Shown here in pieces: positions 31,401 to 47,381 of a stretch of DNA of 64,000 bases. The stretch covers positions 18,988 to 82,987 of the forward strand of contig JBDRCZ010000027.1 of the NCBI GenBank assembly GCA_043821285.1. Reading direction: 5' to 3'. The translations under genes were made by a program, and so were the position numbers. Position 1 is the stretch's first letter; the number at the start of each line of letters is the position of its first letter. This DNA comes from Candidatus Omnitrophota bacterium. GTDB lineage: Bacteria; Omnitrophota; Gorgyraeia; B26-G9; JBDRCZ01. The notes under the pieces are model-generated. The model saw only the letters and a list, made by a program, of their open reading frames with translations, made no database searches and was not told the origin of the DNA.

Positions 31401-34400
31401 GATAACCCAATTACCGGACAAAAAGGGTTAATTAGTAGATTTAAGGATAAATTAACAGAGCTTAATGGATGGATAACTGATATTACAACAATAGAACTGC
31501 CAAAATATGATGTTTTTATTACAAATTTTAATGCAGCATTACAGAAGTTTAATAATTGGCTTAAGGATTTTGATGCTGGGGCAGCAAAAGAACAGGCAGC
31601 AAAAACACAACTTGAACAGGCAAAGCTTAGATATGGAAATCCGAGTCCTCCAGCAAATCCTACGGATTCGAATTTAGTAAACCAAGGCTGGATACCCGCG
31701 TTATATTATGACCAATGGTGGGTGGGAGTAAAAAAAGGTGTGGCAGAAGGAGCACAGAGTAGAGCACAAGCTGAGCTGGCTAAGGCAGAGGAAGGAGTTG
31801 TTCAAGCAGAAGAATTACTGCAGAGTTTAAGGGCTGGATTAGACGAAGTGCGGAAATTACCAGACACAATTAAAGTACCAGCAACACCAACAGTAACCCC
31901 AACAATAACTCCGACAGCAACAGTGACAGTAACGCCAAGTCCGACAACAACAGCAACGCCTTTACCAACTGGAACACCGAGTCCTGCGGCAACAGTAACG
32001 CCGGTAACAAGCCCAACAGGCACACCAATAGCAACGCCATCGCCAGCACCGACGTCGGAACCAACCACAGCGCCAGCAACGCCATCGCCAGCATCGACAA
32101 CAGAGCCAGCCCCGGCAGCACAATCACAAGGTGATACAACTACTGAAACAACTACTACTGTGCAATTAAACATTGGGTCCTTAAATATTAGTTTTGCCAG
32201 AATATTTGGGCAGAGAGGAGCAAGTACTGGTTCTGCGGGATTTAGTATTGGACCGTATGGTTCAGGCGGACTTGCTTGTGTAGGGTTAAGTGTTATGGGC
32301 GTGCTAAGGACCGCGGATATACCAGATGACACAACTCCTGATACTGCTGCAACAACCAGTGATACAGACACAACAGATGCAACAGATACGACTACACCAG
32401 ATGGGACCACAGATGTATCACCGGAAGATACAGCACCAGTTATGATGGATATTTTGAATGCAGAAAAGATAGATAAAGTTGCATTCTTTGAGGCAATGGT
32501 GAAGGTTGCTGAGTTTGGGGGCGCGACGTTTATACAAAGAGGGGGAGAAGAAGATATTGTTATTGTAAAAGATGTAGATGGAACTGTGTTATATGAAAAT
32601 AGTTATAAAGAATGGATGGGACATGTTGGTAGTGGTCATGTTTTTGTAGGGGTGTCCGGGGCGAAGGCTTATCGGGAGGCTGTAACAAGAGGCGGCTATT
32701 CTGAGATAACTGAGAATAATGGGGTAAGAAAGATAACATATTCTACGGTTCAAAACGGGTACACGGAATTACTTGGTAGTGGCGCAACAGCAGAATCGCG
32801 TACTTCTCCCACAAAAAGATATATGGAGGTAAATGTACATGGGGCAACGGTGTTAGCACAGATGCTTACTGTGGGCGGGTATATGCAAAAAGATTATAAT
32901 GGCAATCCGGATATTGTAGCCGTGCATTTGTCCCGGGCAGTAGAGATTGATGGAATAACTTCGGACATCTTTTTTGTTACGCCAGTAGCAACAGCTCCTC
33001 CTGGTGACCCGGGAGATCCTTATTCAGCAGTTTATCCGGATATGACCCCGGGAATAGAGGGAACAAATAATGTGCTTAATGCCATGAAAGGGAGTTATTC
33101 ATTTGAGGTACAGGGAGACTGGACGGTTTGGACGAGTGTAGATGTAAATACAGGAGTTGTTACACAATTCCGGACACCAGCAATGCCGCAAACCACAGGG
33201 CATGATTTTCCCCAGACAGGGGGATTAGCAGGTGTAGATGCTTTACTTAATGCGATTGGGGATGAAACAACTAATCGGCATTCTTATTCATTTGAGGTGG
33301 AAGAAAACAGGATTGTTTTAACCGTGGTTAATGTTGATACCGGAGAGATAACCACTTCCTATCTTACGAAGGCTGCGGATGGAACCCCAATAGGTATTGA
33401 TATTGATGATAAAGGCGGAGTTGCGGCCCGGTCGCGGATTAAAAAGGCATTAGAAAATAGTTATGCAATAGAAATTCAAAATGTAAACGGTAAACTCCGG
33501 GCATATTGGACGGTAGTGGATGTAGATACAGGAAAGGTTATTGATGATTTTTATACTGCGGCAAGCAGTACGATTACTCCTGGTTGGGATTTTCCCTTAA
33601 CCGGCGGGAAGGCAGGTATTACAAAAATCATCGCAGCATTGAATGGCAGTTATTGTATCCTTGATTCAAATAATGGCGTGACTAAATGGTTAGTTGTAGA
33701 TGTGACAACCGGGGCAAAGCAGTATTTTTATACAGCAACTACTGGAGATAAGCCGGTTCCGGGGTATGATATCCCGGATATCGGCGGTAAGCAAGGTTTA
33801 GACTTGATTGTTACCCGGGCATTGTCTAAGCAATATGAGATTGTATTACAGACAGATAAAGAAGTAGCACAATGGAAAATTTATAATATTGCTACCGGGG
33901 AAGAAATTATCGGGCAGGGCTTTTTCACTGCGGCTAATCCGAACAGTCCTGCTGCGGCTGGTGGTATGATATATGCAGTAGATGAAGATTCGAAATATAA
34001 CTTTGATAAACAAGGGGGAAGAGAGGACTTAAAAAATGTAATCTTTGCCTTAGAACATAGTTATATATTTAAAGATTTAGGTGATGGCCGAATAGAATGG
34101 ACCGTGGTTTCAGATGAGGCAGACGGCACATACAAGGTAACGAAATTCTTTACCCGGAAGATAGATAATATTATCCCGGAATATAAATTGGATACGGTCG
34201 GGGGATTAAAGGCGATAGAGTTAATACTCCAGGCGTTAAATTCAAGTTATAAAATTGTTAAGACAGAAAATGGGGTTACGGAATGGCTGATGGTGGATGT
34301 GAAAACCGGTGAGGTAAAATGGTTTCATACTGTGGCGGTGGATAAGATTCTGCCGGGATTTGATATCCCAAAAGTTGGAGGTATTGAGGCCGTAAAAATG

Positions 34401-37400
34401 ATAACCAAAGGTTTAAATAGTGCCTATCGGATATTAGGGGAAGTTAATGGGGTGACGAACTGGGTGATTGTTGATCCGGAAGTACCCCCGGATAAGGGAG
34501 GACTAGAATATTTCTATACCGTTGCCTTAACTGAAGCAGAAACAGATGAATATCCCGAGTTTAAGGTGTCAAAGGTCGGGGGCAAAAAATTAGCCCAGCA
34601 GTGGCGAGATTATGCCTTGCCCGGTACCTATAAGATTGGCGAACGTATTGGTCCTGAAGCTCCGCTTACAAATCAAAATGTCGTGCGTTTTGACGGCGGG
34701 ATGGCAACAATAGTAAGGGTTATTGATACGTATACCGGTGCGGTTAAGCATGTATTTTTTTCGCCCTATATGACCCCGGAAGAAGTAGAAGAGCTAAAGC
34801 AAAAAGATCCGACCTTTGTTTTTGATATGACCGGCGGAAAAGAACTGTATGAGCGGCTGTATAATAGCCAGGCAATGGCATTAGGGTTTAGCTTTGGCCT
34901 AACGCGGGACGAAGGCGGGGTAACTGTGAGTCAACAGTTAATTATCTTTGACCCGGATAGCGAGGCAATATCAAATAGTCTTTATGTGCCATTTATGACG
35001 GAAGCAGAATGGAGCCAAAACCCGAGCACGCGGTTAGATATAACCGGCGGGATAAAACTGCTGCAAAGAATAAAATTAGCTATGGAGAATGCGTATAAGA
35101 TTGGTGAACAGATTACCGTAACAAAAGATGGGGTTAATTTAACACTACAGATTGTGCGGGTCTGGGACCCGCATACTGGGGAGGCGGTAAAAGACCCGCT
35201 TACCGGAGAAATGATTGACCATTTTTACATGCCGGTAATCCCGGAAGAATTACTGGATATTATTTTTGAAGGCCGTGAAGAAGAAAGAAAGGAATTTGAA
35301 GAAAGTAAAACATTAGACTTAGCCAGCGGATATAAGCTGATTGAAGAGATTATAATAAAGGAGATGTTAGAGGGGGTTTATCGCTTAGGCGAGCAGTCAA
35401 AAGAAAAGTCGCATTTAATGGACGTGTATTTGATTGACCCAGATAAACTGGACATAGATACAAAATATGTGCCGTTTCTTAGTGAAGCAGAACGTGCTCA
35501 GGTACCAGAGGATGACCTTCTGGCGCAGCTGTTAAGTAAGGTAGATTTAGTCGGCGGCTTAGGATTAAATGAGAAAGACCGGGAATTGCTTAAAGGTACC
35601 TATAGAATCGTGGGGCGCCTTAGTGAAGAGGAAGGGACTCCCGAGAAATGGGGGGGTGTTGTGCATATCTATAATCCGAAAACAGGTGAAGTTACCGAGG
35701 AATACCGGCCGTATCTTACACCAGATGAGGTAGCTTTAAATCCAGATTTTGCCATACCGAATGTTGGCGGAATAGAGTCATTAGAAAATTGGCGCAGTGG
35801 GATTATTGATGGGTATCTTTTACGGCCTACGCCAATTGAAGTAAAGGGAGAGAGAAAAAATAGTTTTCTGGTCAGGATAGATACGATTGATATTGAGACG
35901 GGTGAAAGAGATCAATTTTTTGTTTCTTATATGACACCAGAAGAATTAGAAAAAGAATTAGAATTTAAGCCGCCGTTTAGTGTTAGTTCGAGATTTCTTA
36001 GAGAGGTTAGAAATTCTTTAGACACCGGCGGATTTTATCTTAGGGACCGGGATGAAACCGATGAAGTGGTTGAGTATTTAGTTTTTGACGGGGAAGGTAA
36101 TGCTGCTCGAGAACTGCACGTTTTTGAGATTCCTGAGGAATATCAGCGTATTAAAATACCCAAAGCCACTGCGGGCAGGGGAAATTTTGAACTTTTCAAG
36201 CGCGTATTAAGAGAAGGCGGATTTGGGAAGAGAGTAAGTGAGGAACGCCTGGCCCTTTATAGTGTGGCGAATGGCCATGAGGAATTAATTGGTCATATCC
36301 CGTATATATTTGGGGATAAAGAAATAGCAAAGGGGTTTGAAAAATTAGAAATTGGTGAGACTGTGGCTTTCCCGGGTGTAGACGGGGCGCAGTTTATGTT
36401 GGATATGATTACTGGATACGGCGGGTATATAAAGAGAATTAGTGAAAACGTAGTAGAGATGGGTAATACTAATGGTGAAATAAAATATGCCCCATATACC
36501 GAAGAAGAAGGTGAGCCGGGCATGGAAATTGGCGAATGGGTGCCGATAACCGGTAAAAAGGCCGCTGAACTAATGGACTATTTGGCCACAGATAGTAATG
36601 GCGGCAGGATCACAAGAATTGATGAATATTTTTCAGAGGTTAAGGTATTTTATGAAGACCGGACAGATAGATTTGTAGTTCCGTACGTACCACTTAAGTA
36701 TCGTTCTGAGCATGAATGGGATGAATTAAAGCAGAGGATGCAGGAACAATTTGGCTTAAACGAAGAAGAGATGCAGCAAATCGAAGGGGTAATAAAGGAA
36801 CTTAAGGCAGAAGAACTTAATATTGGGGAGTATGTTTCCATATTTAGTCTGAAAAATGCTGAAACTTGGCGCCAGGTGAATGAAGAAAGCGGTTATTTTG
36901 TCCGGGATGGGGATATTGTCCGGATATATAATTTAAAGAGCGAATTAATCGGCATTGCCCCTTACCAGAATATTGCGGAATTATTGCGGCAGCAGAAACA
37001 AAAAGAAGGGGAAGAGCCGGAAGAACTAAAGGAATTAGCAGATGGAGACTGGGTGCCGATATTTACCGCGGAGCAGGCCGAGGCAATTATTAAATTAACC
37101 AGAGAAGGCGGCCGGGTAAAACGCTTAAGTGCTTATATAGTTGAGCTGCAGGATGAGTATGGGAACCACCTAATGCTCGCACCATTTGAAAACCCCAAAT
37201 TTAGAAAACCAGGAAGACTAGAACAGCCGACACTGCCGGTAGGCAGGAGTATTGGCGTGGGCGGGGCAAAACTTCCGCGCATGTACAGTGAGCCAACAAG
37301 AGATGGTGAAGGCAATTATATATATGAGGTAACAGATTTAATCGGGAATAAATGGACCGAGGTATGGAATAAAAATGCCGAGACAATAATAATAATCCGC

Positions 37401-40400
37401 GAGGGCAAAGTAACTCAAACCTTGGCATTCCTTGGCGATGCTGTAGATATACCCGCGAAAACTTTAACCATTGATGTAGATGGCAGTAAAATCCTAAAAG
37501 AATATGACCATGAGAGATCCCGAGAGAGTGGGATGCGGGTATATAAGGTTACAGAGCTGAATGATGAGGCAATGCCGGAGGATGATATTATTACTTATGA
37601 ATATTTTAATATTACCGGACAACTCGTGAAGACCGAAGGTCTCACCATGGACACAATAAATCATGAATTTTTAAAAGACGGCCAGACGGATGTTGCGAAA
37701 AGCGGAGAAAAGAGGAATAAAAAAGGCGAACTTGAAGAGACATTTGAATTTGCCTGGCGGGTTTATATGGGGGAAGATAGTGAAGGGAATAAGATTTATG
37801 ATAATGTTTATAAGGTTACGGAAGTAAATGATGAGGAGACAACAGAAGATGATGTTATTAAATATGTGCAGTATGACAGCCGGGGTGAGGCGCGTGCTAC
37901 TTATTATCTTGGTACCGAAGTAGTAAATGGAACAACAGTAGATGGTACGGTAGTCATTGACACGGGTGCGTCTACAGACATACTTTCTCCAGAGATACAG
38001 AAGAGATTAAAAGAGAGAATAAGAAAGAGAATAGTAGAAAGATACAAAAATGAGTTTGTTGATAGCTATATAGCAGAGCATGACTTGACCAGAGAAAATT
38101 TTATTAAACTATTAGATGCGAACATTGTTGAAAGGCTGAAGCTGGGGGTGGTTGATAATCCGGGATTTAGAGAAGAGTTTGAACAGGAAATTAATGCATA
38201 CTTAAAATCTGTACAACAACAAATCGAAGACGAAGTTGCGGCAACATATGATAAGACATATAAAGATAAGTCCTTAAAGCCGATTTACTATTTTAAATGG
38301 AATGAGGAAAATAAGGGGGTTGATATTTTAGAGGGATTAGGGACTAAGGGTTTTGTTATTGACTCTGGGGTGCGGGTGTTTAGTATTGAAGATAAACATG
38401 TGCCGTTTGCCTTAATTCAGGAAATAGATAATCTTGGTGATGTGACCCGGGAATTCGGTATTGTTGACGGCAAGGAACAGTTTAAGATAAGATTTGGCGA
38501 GGGATTATTTATTGTTTCACAAGAAATTTTACAGGCATTAGAAGAAACAGAAGAAAGAGGAGCAGCTTATACCGCAAAATTAGAGCAGAGTAGATTTATT
38601 GCCAAACAGCGGGTATCTGAGTCACAGGAAATACAATATGATGCCCTGCCGAATGAATGGAAAGAAAAGGTAGATAAGATTATTGCGGATTTAAAAGAAC
38701 AGGGATTTATTCCCCCTGACCCGCAGAAGCTTACCTGGATGGAAATCCGGACTATTAACCCGGAAAAACCGGATGATGTATTAGTTACTTCTTATCAGGC
38801 ATTTAGCAAAAAAGATACCCCAGTAATTAAGATTGGGGGGCAGTATTTTAAATATGAAGGAGATAAACAGGCGAAATATGAGAGTCTGATTGATATTGAG
38901 GTTGGGTATGAGGATAAACTTTTGAGTTTGCGTTTTGATTTAGATTTAGTTGATGAGAATTTTAACTGGCGGAAAAGATTAGAGGCATTAAGCTATCACA
39001 TTACCCCGCATGAAGAGGTAATCATTGACCTCTATAGTTCGTTATTGTTTAAGGATTTTAGAAATAAGACGGATGGGTTCTGGGAACAAAGAAAACACTT
39101 GATTAAAGACGGGTTCTTTAATTATGACATTGACTGGATGTTAAACAATTTAAAGGATATTGCCCGGCTAAAAGCAGAAAGAACGGAAACATTTAATTAT
39201 GACACTTATAAATACGATATTACGCTGCTGATGGCATTAGAGGTTCCCGCGGCCCCGGTAACCTACATGCATATTACTAATGATAAAGGCGAAGATGTTA
39301 TTATTGGTAAAGCAGAATTAAATGACATAGATTTTACCCGGCGCTTAATTAAATCCACGAACATGATCAGTTTTTACCGCGATGAAGCCGGGAAGAAAAA
39401 AGCCGCAGATATTCCGTATATTTCCATGCGTGATTTTAAGGGCAATGTAGGGGTGCAATTTTACTTAACTGACGAAGGACCGGTGTTAGGGATTTACTCC
39501 TGGGATTTTGATAAACACGGTATTAGTGATAAATCAATGACCGTATTTAAAACTACTGAGGGCTGGCAGCTATTAGAATCAGCATTTTATGAAGGCGTTG
39601 CGAGCATGCCGCTTAAAGGGTTAGATGAAACAGAAAGTATGGAACGGGTATTCTTTTTTAATGGGATTAGATTTGCGGAAAATATTGGGTTTGAGGTTAA
39701 TGAAAATGATTTATATATTGAACCGAGCAAGCTGCAAGAAACACTTGTCGCCGTATTAGCGGACCCGGTAAATATATTAGACAGGCATAAGATTGGGAAA
39801 AACGGTGAAGGTAAATTAGCTTTAAGATTAGACGGTTATAAATTAGATGACTATGGAAAGGCAATGGGTGATCCTAAATATGTTGCCTTTGTGCTCTACA
39901 AAAAAGGAGCGCTGATTAGTGCGACCGAGGCCGGGCCTTTACATTTTGGATTTGGTAATGAAAGTTATGTTTATTTGTACGATCCGGGTAAAGGATTTGA
40001 TTTGCCTGAAGAGCAGGATGTGCTTAAAGGACTTAATGCTGCGAAGTATAGCGAGCTTAGCTGGAATGCGCAAGTTCAGAAATGGTTAGGCTATGATATG
40101 AATAGTTGGGAAGAGAGCAATTGGGTTGCGCATGCATGGAATCCCCGGGTAGAAAGCTTTGAAAAAGCCGGGACGATTAAACCGGAAACCTGGGCACGTT
40201 ATCCAGGAAAAGAAAAGACCGGTATTTTTTACGATGTTATAGACCATCGTGCGGGTAAAGAAGGTCTTTATATGAACGCACACCTTATCTCCAGTGGTGT
40301 GCTGGTTATTGAGGCATATGAAAGAGTGGACTCTGAATTTATGCCGGATGCTTTCAATATACGCCGGGTTCCACAATTAGTTATTTATGACCCCAACTCC

Positions 40401-43400
40401 GCACATATCCAAAAGCCAATAATAAGTATAGAACAAACAAGCGGGAACTCGTTAGCAGAATTTGAGGTTTCAGAACCAATACTGGTAAAAGAAGGAGATG
40501 GATACATTTGGGTTGTGAGGATAACTGTTAATGGATATGAACCATTTGATCTATTTAAAATTGTGCAGAAAACAGAATATAGATATGTTGCCATAAACAC
40601 CGGTACCTCACACGGACCAGTACTGATTAATAATCAACACCTGTCTGCTCCAGCAGATGAGCCAGATACTAGTGCTGCTGTTGTTCCAATGTTTGTTAAT
40701 CCAGTGCCAGATTTGGCAACGTATGAAATTTGGGATTTTGAGGAACACGAAGGCCATGGGATTGATATCCCAGTCGTAGCAGGAACACCAGTATATGCAA
40801 TAGCAGACGGTGAGGTAATATTTTCTGGTGAGGATCCAAATGGTAAGAAGGGCTATGCGGTAATTTATGTAACAGAAATTCCAGATGATAAAGGACAGAT
40901 GGAAAAATATGCCGTAGTAAATGGGCATTTAGATGAACACGGGCGCATTGAAGAAGGACAGCAGATTTTTGCTGGTGATACGATTATCGGCAAATCCAAT
41001 GGAGCAAAATATCAGCCGGGAGTCACGCAAGATAGTACTGGACCACATTTACATTTGGGGATGTGGCGTATTACAGGTTTAGAACATTATTCTAATCAAG
41101 AGATTGTCAAAGCGATTTTACATTATAATAGAAAGAGTTCTATAGATCGACAAATAGTTCCAAAAAGGCGGGTAGATCCAGAAAAAGTTTTAGCAGATGC
41201 CGGGGCAGTTGATATCAAAGAACGGGAAAAAGCAGTAGCATTAGCAGCAGCGCAATCCTCACAAAAGACCCCAACACCAACTCCGCAAAGAATCGCTTAC
41301 GCATATGCCGTTAATGGTTTGCCAGTGACACTGTCAGAGTTTTATCTTCATCAACAGACTGGCGGAGCAGCTGCACAAGAAACCCTGCAACAAGCTGATT
41401 TATCTTCAGAACAGAAAAATGGTACGGATAATAGAGCATTATACTCTCAAAATAGAGCCGAAAATAAAACAGAGAATGCAAATAATGATAAGAGAAATTT
41501 TGTTATGATCATCGCGGCATTTTTAGGTTCAAGGCTTATTATGCAATGCATCTACTGGGGGATCCGGTATTTTGGTCTGCTGCCGAAGCTCAGGAAGACA
41601 GAAGAAGAAAAATTGATATACAATCCCAAAAATCCGATGGCAGAAAGAAGACGGGCAGAAAAATTACTCTGGACCAAGCCGGCCTTTAGCACGTACAGGA
41701 TTAGTCCGGAAAATGCAAATCAGGTCATCCATGAATTAAGAGAGAAACAGGCAGCAGAACAAGCAGGGCAGGCGGAACCCGAAGATACAATAGTGGTAAT
41801 AATTGAAGCTGATGACGAGACTATAATCTATAATCTTACTCCGGCGGAAGCTGATGAACTGGGACGCGCGTTATCGGGAAATGTAGTATCTGAGGAGAAG
41901 GCCGGTATAAATATAAAGATTGAAGTGGAAAACTATACCTATTCTGAAGGCCCGCTTGAGGGGAATTGTAAGGAACAGCTGCGGCACCTTTATTATTTTA
42001 TTATGGAATGGCGAAGATTAGAAAATGAGTGGGCGGAAGATGACGAGCACTTGCTTGGCGGGACAGATGAGTGGCTTAATGGTCTGGATGTGTTTTCTAA
42101 TCTGCTTTCTTTCTATGTAAGAAGAGTGGTATTTGAAGGGGAAAAAGATAGCCGGATTACAGAAGACAGCAACCATATCTTTGACCGGATGAATAAACAT
42201 CTTGGGGAACTCACAGTATTCGTACGGGAATTACTCCAGGAGTATAAAAATGCGGCAACTGATGAGGAAAGAACAGGGATTAGTGGGACAATAGGGGATG
42301 TGTTAGGAGAAAAAGGGATTAAACCAAGAAAAGCGGAGTTTATTATTCCGGAAAAAAATCTCAGAATTATTCAGCAGTTTATCCAGGACACTATAGATGG
42401 CCGGGACACTGACACTGACACTGACACTGACACTGACACTGACACTGACACTGACACTGACACTGACACTGACACTGACACTGACACTGACACTATTGTA
42501 AGAGAGATGCAAAGCATTATCGGTGAACAGTTGCTTGTAATATCAAGGGATGATACGAAGGTTGAGGTTACAAACAATAATTGGGAAAAGATTGTTGTCT
42601 TAATCAGTAATCAACTCGATGGCGTAGAGGCAGCAGATATAACTGATGTTGTCGAAAAATATAAGTTGTTCAAAAAAAGAGAAGGTTACGACCTTTTGCC
42701 TGTTTTTGCCTGGTTTCTTGACCCGATCCGGCTGCTATTCATGTTTGCGTTTTCAGGATTAGGTATTGCAATCTGGACAAATAATGATTTTATTGGCGGA
42801 CCGACAGTATTACAATTTTTGCCAGAGTTATTTTCCGCGATTTTAGCACTTAATATTTGCGGTGTGCCTTTCTGGCTGCTGGGGCTGGCTGGTGCAGTAC
42901 TTAATTATATTGCAAACAAAGTAAGTGAAAAGGCGCGTTATCCGGGAGAAAATCCGGTTATTTCTTTTTTGCCCCGGATAGTGCCAGTAAGTTGGTTGTT
43001 TGGAAAAGATGTTGTTAAGGGAAGGTATACTTTTGAGATAAAGGAAGGACGCGGATGGGATCCTACGTTCTGGAGGGTAGCATCTTATATTTTTAGAATG
43101 GTGTGTTCTTTAGGCATAACACTAGGTATATGGTTTGTGGTTATTCCTAATCTGATTACCCCGGGACATGATATAATTCAATGGCTCATCGCCGGAATAG
43201 TTTCCCTTATCGCATTGTTAGACTTTTTTGGCTTATTTTTTATTTTAGTAAATAATGCCTTATTTGAAGGGATACAGGAGGCAGTTGAATCCAATAATAC
43301 CAGTAGACAAATGCAGCAAGATCAGGGTATAGCTAATAGAATACGCGGATTGTTTATGAGTATCCTTAGGTTAATACCTATGCGTGGGCTTAGATTTCTT

Positions 43401-46400
43401 AACTCACTTAATTACACTGCCTCCCGGCCGCTTTCAATTATCTGGCAGTCGATTAATTATCATTATCTTAGGCCAACTGCTCCGGCAGGCGGCTGGTATG
43501 GGCAGATTGGCGCGATTGTATTTGACACACTGATACATATCATTTTCTATACTGCGGTTATCTTTATTGGACAGCAGGTAGTTCAACTCTGGCTGGTAGA
43601 TAGGTTTTTATTACCGATTGACTTTTTTGGGACCCTGAAATTAGCTTGTGGGACGTGGATGTTGATAACTGGCTTAGCTATATTATTATATGCCTGCCAG
43701 GAGGGGGTTGTTGCGATAATGAGTTTGTTCCGAACCTTACATTTTCGCGCGGTTGGTATTATATATTTTGTTCTAGCGCTGATTTTAGCAAATTCTGGGG
43801 TGTTATTGCAGCCATTAGTAGATGCCGGGATATTGTCAGCAGGATTAACCGCCGGGATATTCCCCGCGGTAGAGCTATTTCTTGCTAATTCTGTATTTGG
43901 TGTGACATTAGGAATGTGGCTGATTATTGGAGTATTGTTAGTTATATTCTTTCCATCAAAGGTTAAGAGTGTTGCTATACGTCTAATACGTCCAATAATA
44001 CGTTTAATACGTTCAATAATAGGTCTAAAGGAGAAAATATATAAGGATATTCATGACAAGACCGCATATCTATTTCAAGCCGGACAGACGATAATGAGCC
44101 GTGTGTTTAGCGTTGGTGTTGAGCGAGCAACCGAAGAGTTAATGAGCGGCTACCGCCGGCTTATAGAGTTAGAGGCCAAAGATATAATCCAGGGCATTGG
44201 CACAAGGGAAGAATTGAGAGCATATCTTAAGCTTCTGCATACCCGGGAACTTGAATATGAAGTTACCCTCTGGCACCCAATACAATTAGTTGTCGGTGAG
44301 AAGAAAGAAAGAGCAGGCGATGACCCGGAAACCCTTATCCCGCCGCCAGAGGTCCAGATTGTTGTACGTTCTCCCGAGGAGAAAGAACAGATTATCAAGG
44401 CCTGGAACGCAAGAAGGATAATTGTTTCCATGCTTGCGGAGGAGAATAACAGTCATGATACTGGTATTAACATGGTTGAGATGGCATTACAATTAAAACA
44501 AGCAGAATTGGACGATAAAATTATAATGTTCCTGCTAAGTAATAAGTATAGTGATCGTTCAACAGAGCCTTCCCGGGTAAATTATGCTCCAAAAACAGAA
44601 TATGGACAAAGAAACAAGTTTGCCCGGTTAATTCAGGGAGTTACCCAGATTCAGGTAGAGGCGCATTATAACTGGACGACCTTTGGCACTAAGGCGCTGG
44701 CGATGACCGGTATTGATACAAAACCTGACGAGGTTATCCGGATTGATTCTACGGTTACGCTGGATAGAAATGCTAATGCATATAATTTCCCGGCGCATAT
44801 CCGCGATGTAAAGAGAATACGCGCTTCCCGGGATTTGGCCGTGATTGTTCCTACCCGTTCTACCACGAATAACCTGGCGAGTGTTGGCCAGAGCTCGGAG
44901 TTAGTAGAAAGAGGACATGGTAAACATTTAGAAGGCGTAATGTTGCTTGGCGGCACAGGTAGTGAAATTGTCCAGACCGGCTGGGCAAACATTGCCTTAA
45001 TTCTTTACGGCTTAATGCTCTATGCCTATGCCAATCCTAATCAGCCGATATATCCGCCCAGCTCACGGATTAAAGGCTGGAATAGTAATAAAGGATGGTG
45101 GGAGGATTTTTGGAGCCGTAATTACGGGCTTATTCCGATATTCCATAATGCCACGGGTATTTCTGAAGACCTGCAATTAGCCATATCAAATATTAGCGCA
45201 TTAATTGCCTTAGGCTATAGTCCAAAGATTGGCATATCTGAAGCAGACTATTATAAATTAAGAGAGGCCTGGGTTTTGTTAGAACAGTTTACTGCTTTTG
45301 GCCGCTGGGCAAATGGGTGTATGTCCACAGACCAGAGCCAGAGAATACAAGAAGCATTATATTTTGGCTCGCCAAGTTTATATACCAAAGCAGGGGCGGC
45401 TTATCGCGGTAGATTTTTCAGCATGGCTATTCTCTTTTTATCATTTATTGTTGCACTGCCTTTTTCCGTAATCCTTGGTTTTTCATCTTGTATGGGGGTT
45501 ATCCTCTCTTTAGTTAGTCTTGGTGCAATGGCAAATCAGGTGCTTACCTTAAATGGGCTGGTAGCTTATTTAGCCAATGCTGATTTTAACCGCTATATGG
45601 GGGTAATTGGTACGATGATTGCCGGGGGAGCAATTTTCTTATGGGGACTTAATCCGGCACTGCTTATTGTAGGCATGCTCATAGGCGGATATAGTATTGG
45701 TTTTAGCCGCTGGATATACACCCGCGGCCGGGACATCATCCTTTTCCCACAGCAGCTGCTCATTCATGCAGTAGCACAAATTTATAGATTTACCCTGCGT
45801 TTTAACATATCTGCAACTGGTGGTTTTGAAGGTGTAGATATACGGGAACAGCTCGTAAAAAGACCATACGATAATTTTGTTAATATAAAATGGATATTCT
45901 GGTTATTTGGGGTAGGGGGGTATCTTTTAAATTTATATGCCCTGCATGTTAGTGCCACATTAATAAATGTTATCTTTTTATTACCGTCGCTATTATTTTT
46001 CTCGGGGTTATTAATTGGATTATTTGTAACCAGTGTACCTGTTGGCAAGAGTATTGGTGCGTGGAGTTTTTTGCCCAAGACATTAGGTTGGCTGAGCGGC
46101 TATGTTATTTTAGGTTGGTTGCTCAAATGGAGCTTATTAGGGGGTGGATGGTCGCTATTGTCCAGCGGGGGAGTATTATTGATAGCAGCTCTTTTATTGT
46201 CTTGGGTGCTCAGAGACGTGCAGTTTAAGGGAATAAAAAATATAGTTAGCCCCATACATAATTACCTATTTAGTAAAATTGAACGGATGATGCAAAAAAA
46301 GACTGTTAGAAAAGAGTACTTTGCGGGTATTTTAACAGCGGCTCAACAAAATACACTTTTTACAAATCTAATAAATGCAGGCTACATAAATGAGCAGGGT

Positions 46401-47381
46401 GACATTCAAAATAAATTTTTTCAAGGTGACGATAGAATAACCACACCCTCTCAATTGCCATTAACTAATATTGATGGTTGTGAAGATGCGGATGCAGATA
46501 TAAGAGTAAAAATATATGATATTTTACAAAATACTCGCAGTTCCCGGGTTATTTCTGAGTTTGCACGTTCATTCGTGCTTTCGCTAATAGTCTTATTGCT
46601 ATTTTACTGGACACCAGTATTAGGAAGTTTAAATATAATCGGAATGGACGGGCTAAATGTCTTGGTATTTACTAATAACGCATTTTTGGCAGTAGGTATG
46701 TTTTTACTGGCTGTTTTTATCTACTATGGAATTGGGTTGATTATTAGAGGTGCCGAATATCATGGAGTACTGGGCACAAGGTTATTAATTGAAAAGATCT
46801 ACGCGGTGTTTGGGAAGAAAAAGAAAGTAGGCTTAAAGAATGAATTAGATTTTCAATACGGCCGGTTTTTAAGCTTAGAGCAGCAGGATATAATTTCACC
46901 TTTTACAAATATCACACAGGCGGCGGATTATACATTAATTCAGGCGCTTTTTACTGAGGTAAAACTTAATATTAATCTAAAAAGCTATGCTTATGCACGA
47001 CAAAGACTTGAGCTGATAAAACAGTATTTGGATAGATATGATGATGATGAGCAGCCTTACGGAGCACCTGCTCCACAACCTGTCGGTCAGTCTTTAGGGT
47101 ATGCAGGGATACATGGTTTTAATGCACCACAGATTGTATTTTGGCTCTTAGAAAGATTAGGAGTAGATCCTAAAAAGCCACTAGGGAGCAAACTCTGTGA
47201 ATTTCTTGCTGAAACACTAAGTTTTTTAAATGGACAAGGGACTCCTGAACCTCCTGAAAATCCTGAGAAAAGAGAGGAAGCTCTGTCCGTGGCTGATCCT
47301 AATCAGGTGCTGAATGGCAGGATACCAGGAATAGAACGATTACACTTAGGGGATGCATATTTAGTGCAGGAGGCGATTTAA
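25353..47381 (+). CDS. Giant 7,342-aa multidomain protein with the shared leader, a SecA-like ATPase motor, coiled coils, a TM hairpin, a Thr/Pro linker, about 14 tandem repeats, an M23 peptidase domain, DT repeats and a polytopic membrane C-terminus
   Basis: A single uninterrupted 22,029-nt reading frame, with SD and promoter upstream. The domain calls are listed as separate features below. Confidence 0.95.
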   Translation: MTGLKHKIWFKAIAFILIQAFLCLDLSFAAGGDLKNVNSLLAPTIKLDELEEVFNKKYVAESPEEQILTQNFNIKLRKTKKTTEQGTAVSITEEQAECIRAARTGLLNEFTNKVFKRYLTAVQINVREFLPNMAQHMSRAEINIDVVVLGNETAVRLALYHGALHGILAEERGTAETPEERFLEEVFVVQKELEYLNSLSEKEQDNYLKFLKNSYRINHAAFLKLYSRYKEKVKEAEDKGEAPDLRVILSMIASYVKQVSRRDNDFGQINFDMRTNKAKDEVRKVVEGIEIAKETSAGAETSEADVEPNTAAISAEELEEEAKTLIKRFIDIVLTVTGINLIKRIYNYLREKLYLWNKSRKQRKIERRNGELEKIDQDDPDYQDTLFKLWKLQGYDIKSLRPLYALARRVDKRYAALKQELETGNEHMIAGKSRALKDTVTLRVNKLAENDTRNRSKLLEQVLNENNYALLIEALALVQAAFNQVKEIKLYDVQIIAAIAANKGDGQIIRLLPGEGKTYVGAAYAYLNTLDGAKVHMHTTSEYYAKRDAEDVRGVLELLGLSAACLEKENEEKKEAYAADVLYGEKSEFGFDYLKDNLKYESKEKVMHGLYRAMVDEVDYNIQDDGRTPLIISARSVENISEVLYIAVNDVVAGLIREQAEQELEEDERYYVLENLPGDTTPEKAANYTTHSVVFTETGLKAFEKRLLEKGLAEFSKDDFLFSKTHYYIFSMAVQALRAHKLWCIDKDYCINEDKKVEQEKDSQEGDQRADTKDKEPKKGQVVLIDESSGRLMEGRTLSHGLHQAIEAKHLREVITADERTTLEIKTITPRSEAQGSITVESFYKLYEKLSGMSGTVDENEARLWGRQGKEVVRVPSNTLRQLKEHADRLYLTNRERFAAMAEAAQDKQTRGQPVVLGVLTPEDADLLSGMIEELGIEHETLDARNQKDEERIIAHAGRKGRVTIVTNIAGRATNIVLGGKKEIRIQELISEESLSAETAEKRYKDEKQEVIALGGLCVFIAGRQPSSRGDEQFETRAARQGQPGESGHFLSADDPLFEQTGTNKKVRELIEYYQSEEGKGVVVTHVFRKVIHEAQKRLSQVRLHEKKQTQKYEEVLANQRETFYRLRDRFLEEPQETLLEFVEQAIDLIFRDAEDIEKQLALDPELAKYKTGILDEVNEIKKQGKDIKDIARNEGIVREDELSRLTNSGVLRLMLQRQFIRDKFAVFLNIGLTNEQLTFSKEQLKNAVTQALEHRAILARLILQMLDLSWQRHLGDIEELKWAINFRPGDEQKKAAEFGIDAFKTFQAMRDENYLDVCGVVYKGWKRYFRAKAKMIGRQKEEDGEVPEEVQERLKDLDERLGGKWDFLSSRSGQAAATGGVTVVGLSGIVYGYAAPMIQQSLHDAKIEQMNEVLEALQVLDITKATQLIEKYNLEDTFNLGVNEEQLQQEKDLKIIEIVLSSDYTIEDEEGGRYLSVSKTDAETGEEEQTEKIALTSEDDENLVTRLEEIKNNPSEIDKVAQVIKLIIEKGLLESLGGDEAVDANTGTATANQDGQENGAAGETGELLSAEGDEVSDEREGAGQATAGAGGKEGEVSIDEEKAKIEISLQQIIDENEEETVRTLLLKALIKDLIRSENYTYAVQETDEGVYLNIIKIDTETGEKEQIEKITITEEQKTIIETVGVAEEERIKAEKRGPQKPSLSDLFLSSATYLVLTILWLYAAYRKYKHANTKRERYIACLMGLFGVIFVGVGLLGAGPAFNWHASLFAQEVIHPDLLEEPKEEVTGEEIELEEELPELNFLDEVEELKDVRDYIAKRFAELEEDLQKAMGRIDEIIEDELLAKVRYVQAEMDLETAGGKEEEALQDLRDAQQTYDQQVNDFEAATNALIQVLNTEIGSVEEMVEKLDKKIANFTALDERLAERYEKTKELIKGYQQKLVDIREQIETNETTQGDLQEKIRLYEQLNNEIIPKQLADLDESIAFDQACIDALTAAEDKMAGLTANQEAARQKYIDNPITGQKGLISRFKDKLTELNGWITDITTIELPKYDVFITNFNAALQKFNNWLKDFDAGAAKEQAAKTQLEQAKLRYGNPSPPANPTDSNLVNQGWIPALYYDQWWVGVKKGVAEGAQSRAQAELAKAEEGVVQAEELLQSLRAGLDEVRKLPDTIKVPATPTVTPTITPTATVTVTPSPTTTATPLPTGTPSPAATVTPVTSPTGTPIATPSPAPTSEPTTAPATPSPASTTEPAPAAQSQGDTTTETTTTVQLNIGSLNISFARIFGQRGASTGSAGFSIGPYGSGGLACVGLSVMGVLRTADIPDDTTPDTAATTSDTDTTDATDTTTPDGTTDVSPEDTAPVMMDILNAEKIDKVAFFEAMVKVAEFGGATFIQRGGEEDIVIVKDVDGTVLYENSYKEWMGHVGSGHVFVGVSGAKAYREAVTRGGYSEITENNGVRKITYSTVQNGYTELLGSGATAESRTSPTKRYMEVNVHGATVLAQMLTVGGYMQKDYNGNPDIVAVHLSRAVEIDGITSDIFFVTPVATAPPGDPGDPYSAVYPDMTPGIEGTNNVLNAMKGSYSFEVQGDWTVWTSVDVNTGVVTQFRTPAMPQTTGHDFPQTGGLAGVDALLNAIGDETTNRHSYSFEVEENRIVLTVVNVDTGEITTSYLTKAADGTPIGIDIDDKGGVAARSRIKKALENSYAIEIQNVNGKLRAYWTVVDVDTGKVIDDFYTAASSTITPGWDFPLTGGKAGITKIIAALNGSYCILDSNNGVTKWLVVDVTTGAKQYFYTATTGDKPVPGYDIPDIGGKQGLDLIVTRALSKQYEIVLQTDKEVAQWKIYNIATGEEIIGQGFFTAANPNSPAAAGGMIYAVDEDSKYNFDKQGGREDLKNVIFALEHSYIFKDLGDGRIEWTVVSDEADGTYKVTKFFTRKIDNIIPEYKLDTVGGLKAIELILQALNSSYKIVKTENGVTEWLMVDVKTGEVKWFHTVAVDKILPGFDIPKVGGIEAVKMITKGLNSAYRILGEVNGVTNWVIVDPEVPPDKGGLEYFYTVALTEAETDEYPEFKVSKVGGKKLAQQWRDYALPGTYKIGERIGPEAPLTNQNVVRFDGGMATIVRVIDTYTGAVKHVFFSPYMTPEEVEELKQKDPTFVFDMTGGKELYERLYNSQAMALGFSFGLTRDEGGVTVSQQLIIFDPDSEAISNSLYVPFMTEAEWSQNPSTRLDITGGIKLLQRIKLAMENAYKIGEQITVTKDGVNLTLQIVRVWDPHTGEAVKDPLTGEMIDHFYMPVIPEELLDIIFEGREEERKEFEESKTLDLASGYKLIEEIIIKEMLEGVYRLGEQSKEKSHLMDVYLIDPDKLDIDTKYVPFLSEAERAQVPEDDLLAQLLSKVDLVGGLGLNEKDRELLKGTYRIVGRLSEEEGTPEKWGGVVHIYNPKTGEVTEEYRPYLTPDEVALNPDFAIPNVGGIESLENWRSGIIDGYLLRPTPIEVKGERKNSFLVRIDTIDIETGERDQFFVSYMTPEELEKELEFKPPFSVSSRFLREVRNSLDTGGFYLRDRDETDEVVEYLVFDGEGNAARELHVFEIPEEYQRIKIPKATAGRGNFELFKRVLREGGFGKRVSEERLALYSVANGHEELIGHIPYIFGDKEIAKGFEKLEIGETVAFPGVDGAQFMLDMITGYGGYIKRISENVVEMGNTNGEIKYAPYTEEEGEPGMEIGEWVPITGKKAAELMDYLATDSNGGRITRIDEYFSEVKVFYEDRTDRFVVPYVPLKYRSEHEWDELKQRMQEQFGLNEEEMQQIEGVIKELKAEELNIGEYVSIFSLKNAETWRQVNEESGYFVRDGDIVRIYNLKSELIGIAPYQNIAELLRQQKQKEGEEPEELKELADGDWVPIFTAEQAEAIIKLTREGGRVKRLSAYIVELQDEYGNHLMLAPFENPKFRKPGRLEQPTLPVGRSIGVGGAKLPRMYSEPTRDGEGNYIYEVTDLIGNKWTEVWNKNAETIIIIREGKVTQTLAFLGDAVDIPAKTLTIDVDGSKILKEYDHERSRESGMRVYKVTELNDEAMPEDDIITYEYFNITGQLVKTEGLTMDTINHEFLKDGQTDVAKSGEKRNKKGELEETFEFAWRVYMGEDSEGNKIYDNVYKVTEVNDEETTEDDVIKYVQYDSRGEARATYYLGTEVVNGTTVDGTVVIDTGASTDILSPEIQKRLKERIRKRIVERYKNEFVDSYIAEHDLTRENFIKLLDANIVERLKLGVVDNPGFREEFEQEINAYLKSVQQQIEDEVAATYDKTYKDKSLKPIYYFKWNEENKGVDILEGLGTKGFVIDSGVRVFSIEDKHVPFALIQEIDNLGDVTREFGIVDGKEQFKIRFGEGLFIVSQEILQALEETEERGAAYTAKLEQSRFIAKQRVSESQEIQYDALPNEWKEKVDKIIADLKEQGFIPPDPQKLTWMEIRTINPEKPDDVLVTSYQAFSKKDTPVIKIGGQYFKYEGDKQAKYESLIDIEVGYEDKLLSLRFDLDLVDENFNWRKRLEALSYHITPHEEVIIDLYSSLLFKDFRNKTDGFWEQRKHLIKDGFFNYDIDWMLNNLKDIARLKAERTETFNYDTYKYDITLLMALEVPAAPVTYMHITNDKGEDVIIGKAELNDIDFTRRLIKSTNMISFYRDEAGKKKAADIPYISMRDFKGNVGVQFYLTDEGPVLGIYSWDFDKHGISDKSMTVFKTTEGWQLLESAFYEGVASMPLKGLDETESMERVFFFNGIRFAENIGFEVNENDLYIEPSKLQETLVAVLADPVNILDRHKIGKNGEGKLALRLDGYKLDDYGKAMGDPKYVAFVLYKKGALISATEAGPLHFGFGNESYVYLYDPGKGFDLPEEQDVLKGLNAAKYSELSWNAQVQKWLGYDMNSWEESNWVAHAWNPRVESFEKAGTIKPETWARYPGKEKTGIFYDVIDHRAGKEGLYMNAHLISSGVLVIEAYERVDSEFMPDAFNIRRVPQLVIYDPNSAHIQKPIISIEQTSGNSLAEFEVSEPILVKEGDGYIWVVRITVNGYEPFDLFKIVQKTEYRYVAINTGTSHGPVLINNQHLSAPADEPDTSAAVVPMFVNPVPDLATYEIWDFEEHEGHGIDIPVVAGTPVYAIADGEVIFSGEDPNGKKGYAVIYVTEIPDDKGQMEKYAVVNGHLDEHGRIEEGQQIFAGDTIIGKSNGAKYQPGVTQDSTGPHLHLGMWRITGLEHYSNQEIVKAILHYNRKSSIDRQIVPKRRVDPEKVLADAGAVDIKEREKAVALAAAQSSQKTPTPTPQRIAYAYAVNGLPVTLSEFYLHQQTGGAAAQETLQQADLSSEQKNGTDNRALYSQNRAENKTENANNDKRNFVMIIAAFLGSRLIMQCIYWGIRYFGLLPKLRKTEEEKLIYNPKNPMAERRRAEKLLWTKPAFSTYRISPENANQVIHELREKQAAEQAGQAEPEDTIVVIIEADDETIIYNLTPAEADELGRALSGNVVSEEKAGINIKIEVENYTYSEGPLEGNCKEQLRHLYYFIMEWRRLENEWAEDDEHLLGGTDEWLNGLDVFSNLLSFYVRRVVFEGEKDSRITEDSNHIFDRMNKHLGELTVFVRELLQEYKNAATDEERTGISGTIGDVLGEKGIKPRKAEFIIPEKNLRIIQQFIQDTIDGRDTDTDTDTDTDTDTDTDTDTDTDTDTDTDTIVREMQSIIGEQLLVISRDDTKVEVTNNNWEKIVVLISNQLDGVEAADITDVVEKYKLFKKREGYDLLPVFAWFLDPIRLLFMFAFSGLGIAIWTNNDFIGGPTVLQFLPELFSAILALNICGVPFWLLGLAGAVLNYIANKVSEKARYPGENPVISFLPRIVPVSWLFGKDVVKGRYTFEIKEGRGWDPTFWRVASYIFRMVCSLGITLGIWFVVIPNLITPGHDIIQWLIAGIVSLIALLDFFGLFFILVNNALFEGIQEAVESNNTSRQMQQDQGIANRIRGLFMSILRLIPMRGLRFLNSLNYTASRPLSIIWQSINYHYLRPTAPAGGWYGQIGAIVFDTLIHIIFYTAVIFIGQQVVQLWLVDRFLLPIDFFGTLKLACGTWMLITGLAILLYACQEGVVAIMSLFRTLHFRAVGIIYFVLALILANSGVLLQPLVDAGILSAGLTAGIFPAVELFLANSVFGVTLGMWLIIGVLLVIFFPSKVKSVAIRLIRPIIRLIRSIIGLKEKIYKDIHDKTAYLFQAGQTIMSRVFSVGVERATEELMSGYRRLIELEAKDIIQGIGTREELRAYLKLLHTRELEYEVTLWHPIQLVVGEKKERAGDDPETLIPPPEVQIVVRSPEEKEQIIKAWNARRIIVSMLAEENNSHDTGINMVEMALQLKQAELDDKIIMFLLSNKYSDRSTEPSRVNYAPKTEYGQRNKFARLIQGVTQIQVEAHYNWTTFGTKALAMTGIDTKPDEVIRIDSTVTLDRNANAYNFPAHIRDVKRIRASRDLAVIVPTRSTTNNLASVGQSSELVERGHGKHLEGVMLLGGTGSEIVQTGWANIALILYGLMLYAYANPNQPIYPPSSRIKGWNSNKGWWEDFWSRNYGLIPIFHNATGISEDLQLAISNISALIALGYSPKIGISEADYYKLREAWVLLEQFTAFGRWANGCMSTDQSQRIQEALYFGSPSLYTKAGAAYRGRFFSMAILFLSFIVALPFSVILGFSSCMGVILSLVSLGAMANQVLTLNGLVAYLANADFNRYMGVIGTMIAGGAIFLWGLNPALLIVGMLIGGYSIGFSRWIYTRGRDIILFPQQLLIHAVAQIYRFTLRFNISATGGFEGVDIREQLVKRPYDNFVNIKWIFWLFGVGGYLLNLYALHVSATLINVIFLLPSLLFFSGLLIGLFVTSVPVGKSIGAWSFLPKTLGWLSGYVILGWLLKWSLLGGGWSLLSSGGVLLIAALLLSWVLRDVQFKGIKNIVSPIHNYLFSKIERMMQKKTVRKEYFAGILTAAQQNTLFTNLINAGYINEQGDIQNKFFQGDDRITTPSQLPLTNIDGCEDADADIRVKIYDILQNTRSSRVISEFARSFVLSLIVLLLFYWTPVLGSLNIIGMDGLNVLVFTNNAFLAVGMFLLAVFIYYGIGLIIRGAEYHGVLGTRLLIEKIYAVFGKKKKVGLKNELDFQYGRFLSLEQQDIISPFTNITQAADYTLIQALFTEVKLNINLKSYAYARQRLELIKQYLDRYDDDEQPYGAPAPQPVGQSLGYAGIHGFNAPQIVFWLLERLGVDPKKPLGSKLCEFLAETLSFLNGQGTPEPPENPEKREEALSVADPNQVLNGRIPGIERLHLGDAYLVQEAI
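26700..28830 (+). other. SecA-like preprotein-translocase ATPase motor (NBD1 - PPXD insert - NBD2 - start of helical scaffold)
   Basis: Colinear matches to SecA in order: LLPGEGKT (Walker A, cf. SecA MRTGEGKT); YAADVLYGEKSEFGFDYLKDN ... MVDEVDYNIQDDGRTPLIIS (cf. [21 protein letters not shown] ... [20 protein letters not shown]); LIDESSGRLMEGRTLSHGLHQAIEAKH; FYKLYEKLSGMSGT; TNIAGRATNIVLGG (cf. TNMAGRGTDIVLGG); GGLCVFIAGRQPSSRGDEQFETRAARQGQPGES. Confidence 0.9.
30460..30650 (+). other. Pair of transmembrane helices (internal TM hairpin) in the giant protein
   Basis: ATYLVLTILWLYAAY and CLMGLFGVIFVGVGLLGAG are strongly hydrophobic ~20-aa stretches flanked by basic residues. Confidence 0.6.
31870..32420 (+). 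repeat. Thr/Pro-rich low-complexity linker (PT repeats) followed by a Thr/Asp-rich stretch
   Basis: PATPTVTPTITPTATVTVTPSPTTTATPLPTGTPSPAATVTPVTSP ... followed by TTPDTAATTSDTDTTDATDTTTPDGTTD. This is a typical extracellular flexible linker. Confidence 0.85.
33080..36040 (+). repeat. About 14 degenerate tandem protein repeats (~65-90 aa each), consensus ... SY-x-I ... W-x-V-V-D-V-x-T-G-E/K ... F-Y/F-T ... P ... D-I/F-P ... G-G ... A-L-N
   Basis: Recurring blocks include WTVVDVDTGKV ... FYTAA ... DFPLTGGKAG ... ALNGSY; WLVVDVTTGAKQYFYTAT ... DIPDIGGKQG ... ALSKQY; WLMVDVKTGEVKWFHTVA ... DIPKVGGIEA ... GLNSAY. They were identified by eye in the translation. Confidence 0.75.
40700..41080 (+). 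other. M23/LytM-family zinc metallopeptidase domain (peptidoglycan endopeptidase-like)
   Basis: The HxxxD motif (HEGHGIDIP) and the HxH motif (GPHLHLGMW) sit ~100 aa apart, with Gly-rich beta-strands between them (AIADGEVIFSG). This is the canonical M23 active-site arrangement. Confidence 0.8.
42405..42494 (+). repeat. Perfect hexanucleotide microsatellite (GACACT)x15, encoding (Asp-Thr)15 in frame
   Basis: Counted directly: 15 uninterrupted GACACT units. The unit length is a multiple of 3, so slippage changes length but not frame. Confidence 0.95.
42670..47381 (+). other. Polytopic integral-membrane C-terminal region (~1,570 aa, more than 20 hydrophobic helices interspersed with soluble loops)
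   Basis: Long runs of hydrophobic 18-25-aa segments, for example LLFMFAFSGLGIAIW, ICGVPFWLLGLAGAVL, LGITLGIWFVVIPNLI and GVLLVIFFPS, with many Trp/Gly. A short IRLIRPIIRLIRSII motif follows one helix. Confidence 0.75.

Follow-up and report, generated by a model that had tools for sequence, protein, structure and literature searches.

An M23/LytM-family domain with an unusual first metal motif within a SecA-containing megaprotein of an Omnitrophota bacterium

The 64,000-nucleotide (nt) stretch of DNA analyzed here (the window) comes from a metagenome-assembled genome described as 'Candidatus Omnitrophota bacterium', and seven of its proteins were exact matches to NCBI proteins in the range MFH1776461-83, labeled '[Candidatus Omnitrophota bacterium]'. 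On the forward strand, a 22,029-nt uninterrupted open reading frame (ORF) at 25353-47381 encodes a protein of 7,342 amino acids (aa), the megaprotein, and holds in frame the stretch 40700-41080, where an earlier note on this DNA had recognized an intact M23/LytM peptidoglycan endopeptidase domain. We found that the M23/LytM domain is genuine, far beyond chance, as judged by profile matches and a structural model, and that, in an alignment with other members of the family, a Gly occupies the position of the first zinc ligand. Our favored reading, held tentatively and with somewhat less than an even chance of being right, is that the host lineage inserted an M23 endopeptidase into a SecA-fused membrane megaprotein, where it would cut the producer's own wall locally. 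The features of the megaprotein are collected in Table 1.

The family assignment was supported by several comparisons. With a gathering cut-off of 28.7 bits, the Pfam family PF01551 (Peptidase_M23) matched aa 5135-5239 at 42.0 bits (E 1.1e-10) when a 4,342-aa C-terminal piece of the megaprotein was searched, and at 48.3 bits (E 1.2e-12) when a 200-aa excerpt was used. No other Pfam family matched this excerpt even at E<=10, and no LysM or OapA alternative was detected in it. A custom hidden Markov model (HMM) placed the envelope of the domain at aa 5104-5260, and a profile built from the domain and its relatives recovered 46 PDB sequences at E<=1e-5, ShyA with an E of 1e-32; the matches included lysostaphin, LytM and zoocin A, and also the degenerate proteins EnvC, DipM and SpoIIQ. 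The blocks GTPVYA and TGPHLH are common to the domain and the M23B enzymes. The score against the NCBIfam MepM equivalog was 23.1, with a cut-off of 341, indicating that the domain does not belong to a MepM ortholog. An AlphaFold2 model of the region, built on a 122-sequence alignment, had a mean predicted local distance difference test (pLDDT) score of 70.8, with core blocks at 80-88; beyond the domain, where the model extends to aa 5275 into the start of a tether, pLDDT fell below 50 from aa 5265 on. A single-sequence AlphaFold model reached a pLDDT of 35.7 and was discarded as unusable. The 45 best Foldseek matches of the model in the PDB were all M23/LytM structures, with target-normalized TM-scores of up to 0.68. 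A chance motif or a LysM/OapA-like fold was rejected because PF01551 scored above its cut-off and these Foldseek matches all fell in M23/LytM. In agreement, the peptides quoted in the earlier note were present (HEGHGIDIP at aa 5132-5140, from nt 40746; AIADGEVIFSG; and GPHLHLGMW at aa 5230-5238), the match to PF01551 that it had proposed as a check was found, and the M23 beta-sheet fold that it had read into the sequence was borne out by the model core and by Foldseek.

Residue conservation was assessed from an alignment of the domain with 121 M23 comparators. The M23 family is defined by the motifs H(x)nD and HxH, Hx3D being typical of M23B; the first His of HxH activates the water and the second binds zinc, and an extra conserved His some 30-40 residues ahead of HxH (LytM His260) and an oxyanion-stabilizing Tyr or Arg (LytM Tyr204, EnpA Arg21) are also found (PMC9662197). 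D5138 fell in a column that is Asp in 121/121 comparators, and H5192, within VVNGHLD and 40 residues before H5232, in a column that is His in 119/121. H5232 and H5234 occupied columns that are each His in all 121, confirming the HxH motif that had been noted before. By this alignment, four of the five catalytic or metal-binding residues (D5138, H5192, H5232 and H5234) are in register. The fifth, the first zinc ligand, is His in every one of the 121 comparators, and at this position, -4 relative to D5138, the megaprotein has G5134, with His at -3 (H5135) and at -6 (H5132). The motif can thus be read as H(x)2D or H(x)5D, and the HxxxD in canonical spacing that the earlier note had described is absent, as is the Hx3D signature of M23B. 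Since the first zinc-ligand His is a Gly, the domain is not 'intact', and we consider its catalytic competence about an even bet; what stands of the intact domain first described is a genuine M23/LytM fold with four residues in register.

The two neighboring histidines offered a possible substitute for the missing ligand. In a HMMER alignment with zoocin A and in a four-sequence MAFFT alignment, H5135 was placed in the ligand column via a one-residue gap or deletion, and in a 21-sequence MAFFT alignment H5132 was placed there via a two-residue insertion, alongside the M23 sequences P0040 and P0046. Non-canonical spacing was found in four of about 95 distant M23 matches, three with H(x)5D (P0040, HDGGGID; P0046, HYGGGID; P0052, HDYPAID) and one with H(x)4D (P0108), and all four keep the middle His and HxH. 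Zinc might still be bound in the megaprotein, either through H5132, in an H(x)5D arrangement as in these few natural M23 sequences, or through H5135 in place of the canonical His. The four retained residues together with two flanking histidines would look like the pattern expected of continued selection for metal binding. In the oxyanion region, the two residues preceding the canonical His are Arg or Lys in the consensus, and E5131 and H5132 in the megaprotein; Y5124, W5127 and F5129 lie near, and the alignment is unreliable in this part.

The same residues can be read as those of a degenerate, non-catalytic LytM domain that lost its first zinc ligand and serves as a peptidoglycan- or protein-binding module, an explanation that we regard as possible but doubtful. 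Such a module could be an activator or docking site for a hydrolase, as EnvC, NlpD and DipM are, or a protein interface, as in B. subtilis SpoIIQ and H. pylori Csd2. EnvC and NlpD have lost several catalytic or metal-binding residues. The megaprotein, unlike these degenerate domains, keeps the other four and has His at -3 and -6, and no partner is identifiable. Scans of the protein and of 20 neighboring ORFs, in which a partner encoded elsewhere would be missed, turned up no amidase_3 or YscJ-like domain and no further M23 domain. Like the domain described here, B. subtilis SpoIIQ has this fold and departs from the first motif solely at its first His, and replacing this one His in SpoIIQ (by Ser naturally in B. 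subtilis, by H120S in C. difficile) leaves the protein unable to bind zinc (PMC4982068). This precedent and the Gly in an otherwise invariant His column weigh against catalysis, as do N5190, which replaces a conserved Tyr/Phe, and G5236, which replaces the Glu after HxH. Moreover, EnvC (4bh5/8c0j), DipM (7qrl) and Csd2 (5j1k) fitted the model about as well as the active members did in Foldseek, the model was least confident just before the motif (pLDDT 58 at aa 5125-5134), and degenerate M23 folds form a recognized functional class (PMC9662197). No close relative with the M23 domain, in which the conservation of H5132 and H5135 could be read, was found in the genome or metagenome collections searched. 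Against a degenerate module stand the natural H(x)4-5D variants, which keep all other catalytic residues.

The origin of the domain was approached through an exhaustive HMMER search with aa 4221-5420 against 1.84 billion representatives. It returned about 30 large proteins homologous to parts of the host ORF, which share with it, at 30-40% identity, a conserved region just upstream of M23 (here domain X), plus generic M23 proteins that matched the M23 part alone. The local M23 HMM found no match in any of the approximately 30 domain-X proteins, and Pfam detected no M23 in the homologs P0010, P0014 and P0007. Three of the domain-X proteins (P0010, P0014 and P0036) run collinear with the megaprotein: domain X is followed by a region that aligns with aa 5524-5830, and precisely where M23 stands they fall short by 300-360 residues; P0010 and P0014 also share the C-terminal membrane domain. 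In the collinear homologs, the whole interval from domain X to the next helix is 62-300 residues. Because they keep domain X, the helix and the C-terminal domain and have no M23, the domain is, on this comparison, a lineage-specific insertion into a variable, juxtamembrane, predicted extracytoplasmic spacer; it would have entered in this lineage only, in the stretch that separates domain X from the next membrane helix.

Other searches with the M23 region gave little. A word-indexed protein search recovered three weak stand-alone M23 proteins only, scans of genome contigs with the M23 region or with a three-sequence domain-X alignment yielded no relative, and a scan of metagenome contigs with the M23 region gave nothing. 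Two contigs carrying a degenerate DNA pattern for the domain-X block EAGPLHFG[FY]G were dismissed after tblastn as chance 11-residue matches. The nominal best phmmer match to the N-terminus of M23, P0033, was an artefact, being a 16-fold repeat protein in which each copy scored 10.5 bits or less. The G+C content (GC) of the M23 region was 0.408 and that of the gene 0.411, with GC at third codon positions 1.6 standard deviations low; a recent horizontal acquisition was left unsupported by this composition, which is typical of the gene.

Domain X itself is about 600-780 aa long, with the conserved blocks VSLRFDLD, WRDFKGNVR, GKSGEGKL and SATEAGPLHFG[FY]G, and most proteins that bear it are fragmentary. 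It was always followed by one transmembrane helix, and had no Pfam match (E<=10) and no PDB sequence match. The C-terminal domain shares homology with parts of P0010 and P0014, the P0010 match covering aa 6132-6821 at 297 bits; it had no Pfam (E<=10) or usable PDB match, and its last 1,643 aa retrieved nothing in the word-indexed protein search. The 492-aa loop of this domain contains ATGISEDLQLA, which resembles the ISED motif of the GT48 glucan synthases; no HMM supports the likeness, and it is a lead only. In P0014 (3,809 aa), DUF218 and radical-SAM domains stand after the membrane domain, at aa 2687-3271; members of this family therefore differ in the enzyme modules they have acquired.

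About 20 hydrophobic segments were predicted in the megaprotein, and the predicted order is a leader, the SecA-like module, two helices, 3,624 hydrophilic residues, the helix 5383-5401, 379 hydrophilic residues that lead to the polytopic domain, and about 16 helices. The loop between helices 1707-1725 and 1740-1758 carries six Lys/Arg in 14 residues, and helix 1740-1758 has six before it and none after, which predicts an inside-to-outside orientation. The flank after helix 5383-5401 is basic, and helix 5781-5799 has five Lys/Arg before it and none after. The positive-inside rule predicts an extracytoplasmic location for aa 1759-5382, some 3,600 residues. Seven homologs had a single helix after domain X, with a strongly basic downstream flank in 3/3 of those read, and this supports the same topology for the megaprotein. 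The predicted outside segment starts and ends with a transmembrane helix, and both of its ends would be tied to the producer's cytoplasmic membrane. M23 is the sole Pfam-recognizable domain within it and, of its globular domains, the nearest to the membrane, with about 140 residues left before the closing helix. With these ends tethered, M23 would sit in the producer's periplasm, some 120-140 residues away from the membrane. The earlier statement that this part of the protein reaches a peptidoglycan layer holds in so far as the domain falls in the segment predicted to be outside.

Two considerations count against this placement. The topology was derived from hydropathy and charge counts only, and it carries a paradox, since the SecA ATPase would also end up outside were both the leader and helix 1707-1725 membrane-spanning. 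Were neither of them to span, SecA would be inside, and the long segment is predicted to be outside either way. The same topology puzzle has been noted for other long Omnitrophota proteins (bioRxiv 10.64898/2026.06.07.730766). As a separate observation, in both the megaprotein and the protein encoded next door, ATP-dependent modules (SecA-type and a phosphoglycerate kinase (PGK) fold) follow a classical-looking Sec signal peptide with an A-x-A-like site (SFA/A, AWA/A, SWA/A). A further explanation, which we judge improbable, is that a cytoplasmic SecA is followed by a hairpin of helices 1707-1725 and 1740-1758, which leaves aa 1759-5382 in the cytoplasm, so that M23 never meets peptidoglycan and has another role or none. 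SecA needs ATP and is expected inside, and, when the leader is not counted as a span, two helices precede the long segment; in addition, 46% of long Omnitrophota proteins are predicted to have their bulk on the cytoplasmic face (bioRxiv 10.64898/2026.06.07.730766). This arrangement is, however, at odds with the basic loop of the putative hairpin and the lack of Lys/Arg after it, and with the same charge logic at helices 5383-5401 and 5781-5799 and in the homologs read. Thr/Pro linkers and tandem beta-rich repeats, both present in the segment, would moreover be typical of exported regions.

In the favored reading, the M23 domain would cleave peptide cross-links in the producer's own sacculus locally, and the cleavage would make room for, or let through, the ectodomain of about 3,600 residues, which might be exported with the help of the fused SecA motor. 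A target in the producer's own wall was preferred because M23 stands at the membrane-proximal end of a doubly anchored loop, because Omnitrophota keep complete peptidoglycan synthesis (bioRxiv 10.64898/2026.06.07.730766), and because the homologous machines work without M23. The earlier note had offered two roles for the domain, a predatory or epibiotic one and cell-wall remodeling during export; from the position of M23 some 140 residues off the closing helix and the anchoring at both ends, we infer that own-wall remodeling is to be favored over a prey-directed weapon. This choice is tempered by the fact that no evidence separates the producer's own wall from a foreign one.

An active endopeptidase directed against another cell, with the ectodomain reaching a prey or host whose peptidoglycan M23 would cut, appears unlikely to us. 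The organism belongs to the Omnitrophota, a phylum whose giant SecA-containing membrane proteins have been proposed to bind and digest prey walls (bioRxiv 10.1101/2023.11.21.568195), and giant ORFs have been linked to symbiotic or predatory lifestyles (PMC10066038); but the prey of the cultured relative is an archaeon without peptidoglycan (bioRxiv 10.1101/2023.11.21.568195). The Thr/Pro linker and the repeat array could serve as a stalk, but M23 is in the membrane-proximal and not the distal part of the ectodomain, and, with anchoring predicted at both ends, reaching a prey would require crossing the producer's own wall and outer layers. Among the matches were M23 bacteriocins (lysostaphin, zoocin A) and phage injection proteins (phi29 gp13, a cyanophage pre-ejectosome protein). 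The window showed no genes for secretion or pili. The homologous megaproteins without M23 further argue that the domain is not a core part of the machine.

A more ambitious version of the own-wall reading would make the megaprotein a self-contained export machine, in which the SecA motor and the polytopic domain move its own ectodomain, and perhaps three neighbors that share its leader (two of them with an 'E.AI' tail), with M23 opening the sacculus by means of an H(x)5D or H(x)2D zinc site. We hold this version to be a long shot; if true, it would represent a new division of labor for SecA and M23.

Table 1. Features of the megaprotein, with positions in the window
Feature	Window positions	Strand	Basis or remark
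Giant ORF, host of M23	25353..47381	+	single ORF, 7,342 aa
Signal-peptide-like leader, aa 1-32, MTGLKHKIWFKAIAFILIQAFLCLDLSFAAGG	25353..25448	+	hydrophobic segment 12-30, basic N-flank
SecA-like ATPase module, aa 443-1322	26679..29318	+	Pfam SecA family matches
Helix pair, aa 1707-1725 and 1740-1758, with strongly basic loop YRKYKHANTKRERY between	30471..30626	+	hydropathy, charge
Thr/Pro-rich linker, aa 2176-2269	31878..32159	+	seen in translation
Tandem repeats, at least 10 of 53-77 aa, aa 2565-3476	33045..35780	+	jackhmmer
Conserved domain X, aa 4305-5089, just upstream of M23	38265..40619	+	homology to about 30 large proteins
M23/LytM domain, envelope aa 5104-5260	40662..41132	+	Pfam; custom HMM; AlphaFold2/Foldseek; PDB profile matches
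Pfam M23 core, aa 5135-5239	40755..41069	+	PF01551
First metal motif, H5132-E-G5134-H5135-G-I-D5138, non-canonical	40746..40766	+	Gly at invariant His position
H5192, conserved 'xGHL' His (LytM His260 equivalent)	40926..40928	+	40 residues before HxH; column 119/121 His
HxH motif, H5232-L-H5234, within TGPHLHLG	41046..41054	+	both columns 121/121 His
Tether of about 120 residues, aa 5261-5382, second half low-complexity	41133..41498	+	sequence; links M23 and next helix
Transmembrane helix, aa 5383-5401, end of predicted extracytoplasmic segment	41499..41555	+	hydropathy; KLRK...RRR after
C-terminal polytopic membrane domain, about 16 helices, aa 5781-7131, with 492-aa loop 6200-6691	42693..46745	+	hydropathy; homology to P0010/P0014

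The SecA-like module matched the Pfam families SecA_DEAD (PF07517, 201.9 bits), SecA_PP_bind (PF01043, 56.7 bits), P-loop_SecA (152.7 bits) and SecA_SW (PF07516, 65.6 bits with a cut-off of 26.7, at aa 1086-1322, window 28608-29318). GEGKT and DEVD are present, and motif VI is divergent, reading TNIAGRATNI where canonical SecA has TNMAGRGTDI. The NCBIfam SecA model scored 460 bits, below its equivalog cut-off of 814. By these matches and motifs, the module is complete but divergent. Within the predicted outside segment, a jackhmmer search with one repeat unit against the protein gave 10 copies (E 1.7e-08 to 1.8e-32) sharing the motif ...GG..A......L..SY.......G...W.VVDV.TG..., with W.VVDV.TG as a conserved core, and the repeats had no Pfam match even at E<=10. 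The array is preceded by the 94-aa Thr/Pro-rich linker and a Thr/Asp-rich stretch; in the 250-aa block that holds the linker, Thr, Pro and Ser make up 0.31 of the residues. The linker and repeats on which the earlier note had relied are therefore real, but they lie about 1,600-2,900 residues upstream of M23 rather than adjoining it. A perfect dipeptide repeat, (Asp-Thr)x15, was observed at aa 5685-5714 (window 42405-42494), in the predicted cytoplasmic segment before the polytopic domain.

Near-identical leaders were observed at the start of four ORFs in the window, at 25353-25448, 47675-47770, 51255-51340 and 55592-55690; these are the giant, an ORF with a PGK domain, a 255-aa ORF and a 1,583-aa ORF. 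The leader pattern consists of basic residues followed by FK.IA..LI.AF[LF]C[LM]D[IL][SA][FW], with AAGG next in three of them and GRP in the ORF at 51255, and it is kept at the protein level through synonymous DNA changes. Similar C-terminal tails close three of the proteins (...VQEAI, ...IEMAI and ...VERAI, at 47340-47378, 51120-51157 and 60305-60340), and P0014, a homolog of unrelated source, also ends in ...LDRAI. NCBIfam returned no match for the shared leaders and tails, and the shared leader could be a signal dedicated to sorting. The forward-strand ORF at 47675-51160, which comes directly after the giant, encodes a 1,161-aa protein, MFH1776477.1, annotated as 'phosphoglycerate kinase'. 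It opens with the shared leader, has helices at either end and contains a PGK-like domain that is split (Pfam PGK, 78.9 bits, aa 595-838), an odd architecture for a glycolytic, ATP-generating fold. No phage genes were seen in the window.

When compared with known M23B enzymes (ShyA/MepM, LytM, lysostaphin, zoocin A and StM23), the domain belongs to the same HMM family and has the same fold, Asp, middle His and HxH; it differs in the Gly, Asn and Gly replacements described above (G5134, N5190 and G5236). These enzymes are secreted or lipid-anchored proteins of 150-450 aa, whereas here some 5,100 residues precede the domain in a membrane protein of 7,342 aa. A single M23 domain within a much larger wall-passing protein is also found in phage phi29 gp13, the cyanophage A4 pre-ejectosome protein (9k2v) and Gp16 (9m7n), which were among the sequence and fold matches, but these are virion parts that act on the host wall from outside, and the megaprotein is a chromosomal, membrane-anchored bacterial protein.

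The closest described class comprises giant Omnitrophota proteins that are multi-pass and poorly conserved, carry a divergent SecA and have been proposed to degrade cell walls (West-Roberts et al. 2023, bioRxiv 10.1101/2023.11.21.568195). The megaprotein resembles them in its phylum, in its divergent SecA_DEAD and preprotein-binding domains, many helices, few recognizable domains and poor conservation, and in the proposed link to the cell wall. Those giants exceed 30,000 aa and their SecA is said to lack the wing/scaffold, for which PF07516 gave a match here; of their 'Archaeovorin' and 'Dockerin-type' domain sets, no glycosyltransferase, glycoside hydrolase, methyltransferase, NUDIX, C39 or dockerin match was obtained with Pfam in the megaprotein. 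An architecture cluster of 20 proteins with PF07517 has been described in Omnitrophota (bioRxiv 10.64898/2026.06.07.730766), and the ORF, at 22,029 nt, exceeds the 20 kb used to define giant ORFs by Seymour et al. 2023 (PMC10066038), where most of the sequence of giant Omnitrophota proteins was left unannotated. Predatory or epibiotic lifestyles with wall-degrading giant proteins have been proposed for the phylum (bioRxiv 10.1101/2023.11.21.568195; PMC10066038). M23 is not mentioned in the main texts of bioRxiv 10.1101/2023.11.21.568195 and bioRxiv 10.64898/2026.06.07.730766 or in the text of PMC10066038, and a literature search joining Omnitrophota and M23 returned nothing relevant.

Collectively, the megaprotein carries an M23-family domain with unusual first-motif spacing inside an already described class of megaproteins, and this is not a new principle; for an envelope protein of a bacterium to contain an M23 domain is nothing unusual in itself. 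The proposal of wall degradation for the Omnitrophota giants rests largely on carbohydrate-active and adhesion-like domains (bioRxiv 10.1101/2023.11.21.568195). The M23 module of about 160 residues, which is separately expressible, is a rare biochemical handle on whether such a protein touches peptidoglycan, and whose. Moreover, with its first zinc ligand displaced, the domain serves as a modest experiment of nature on how much variation in H(x)nD spacing is tolerated in M23B.

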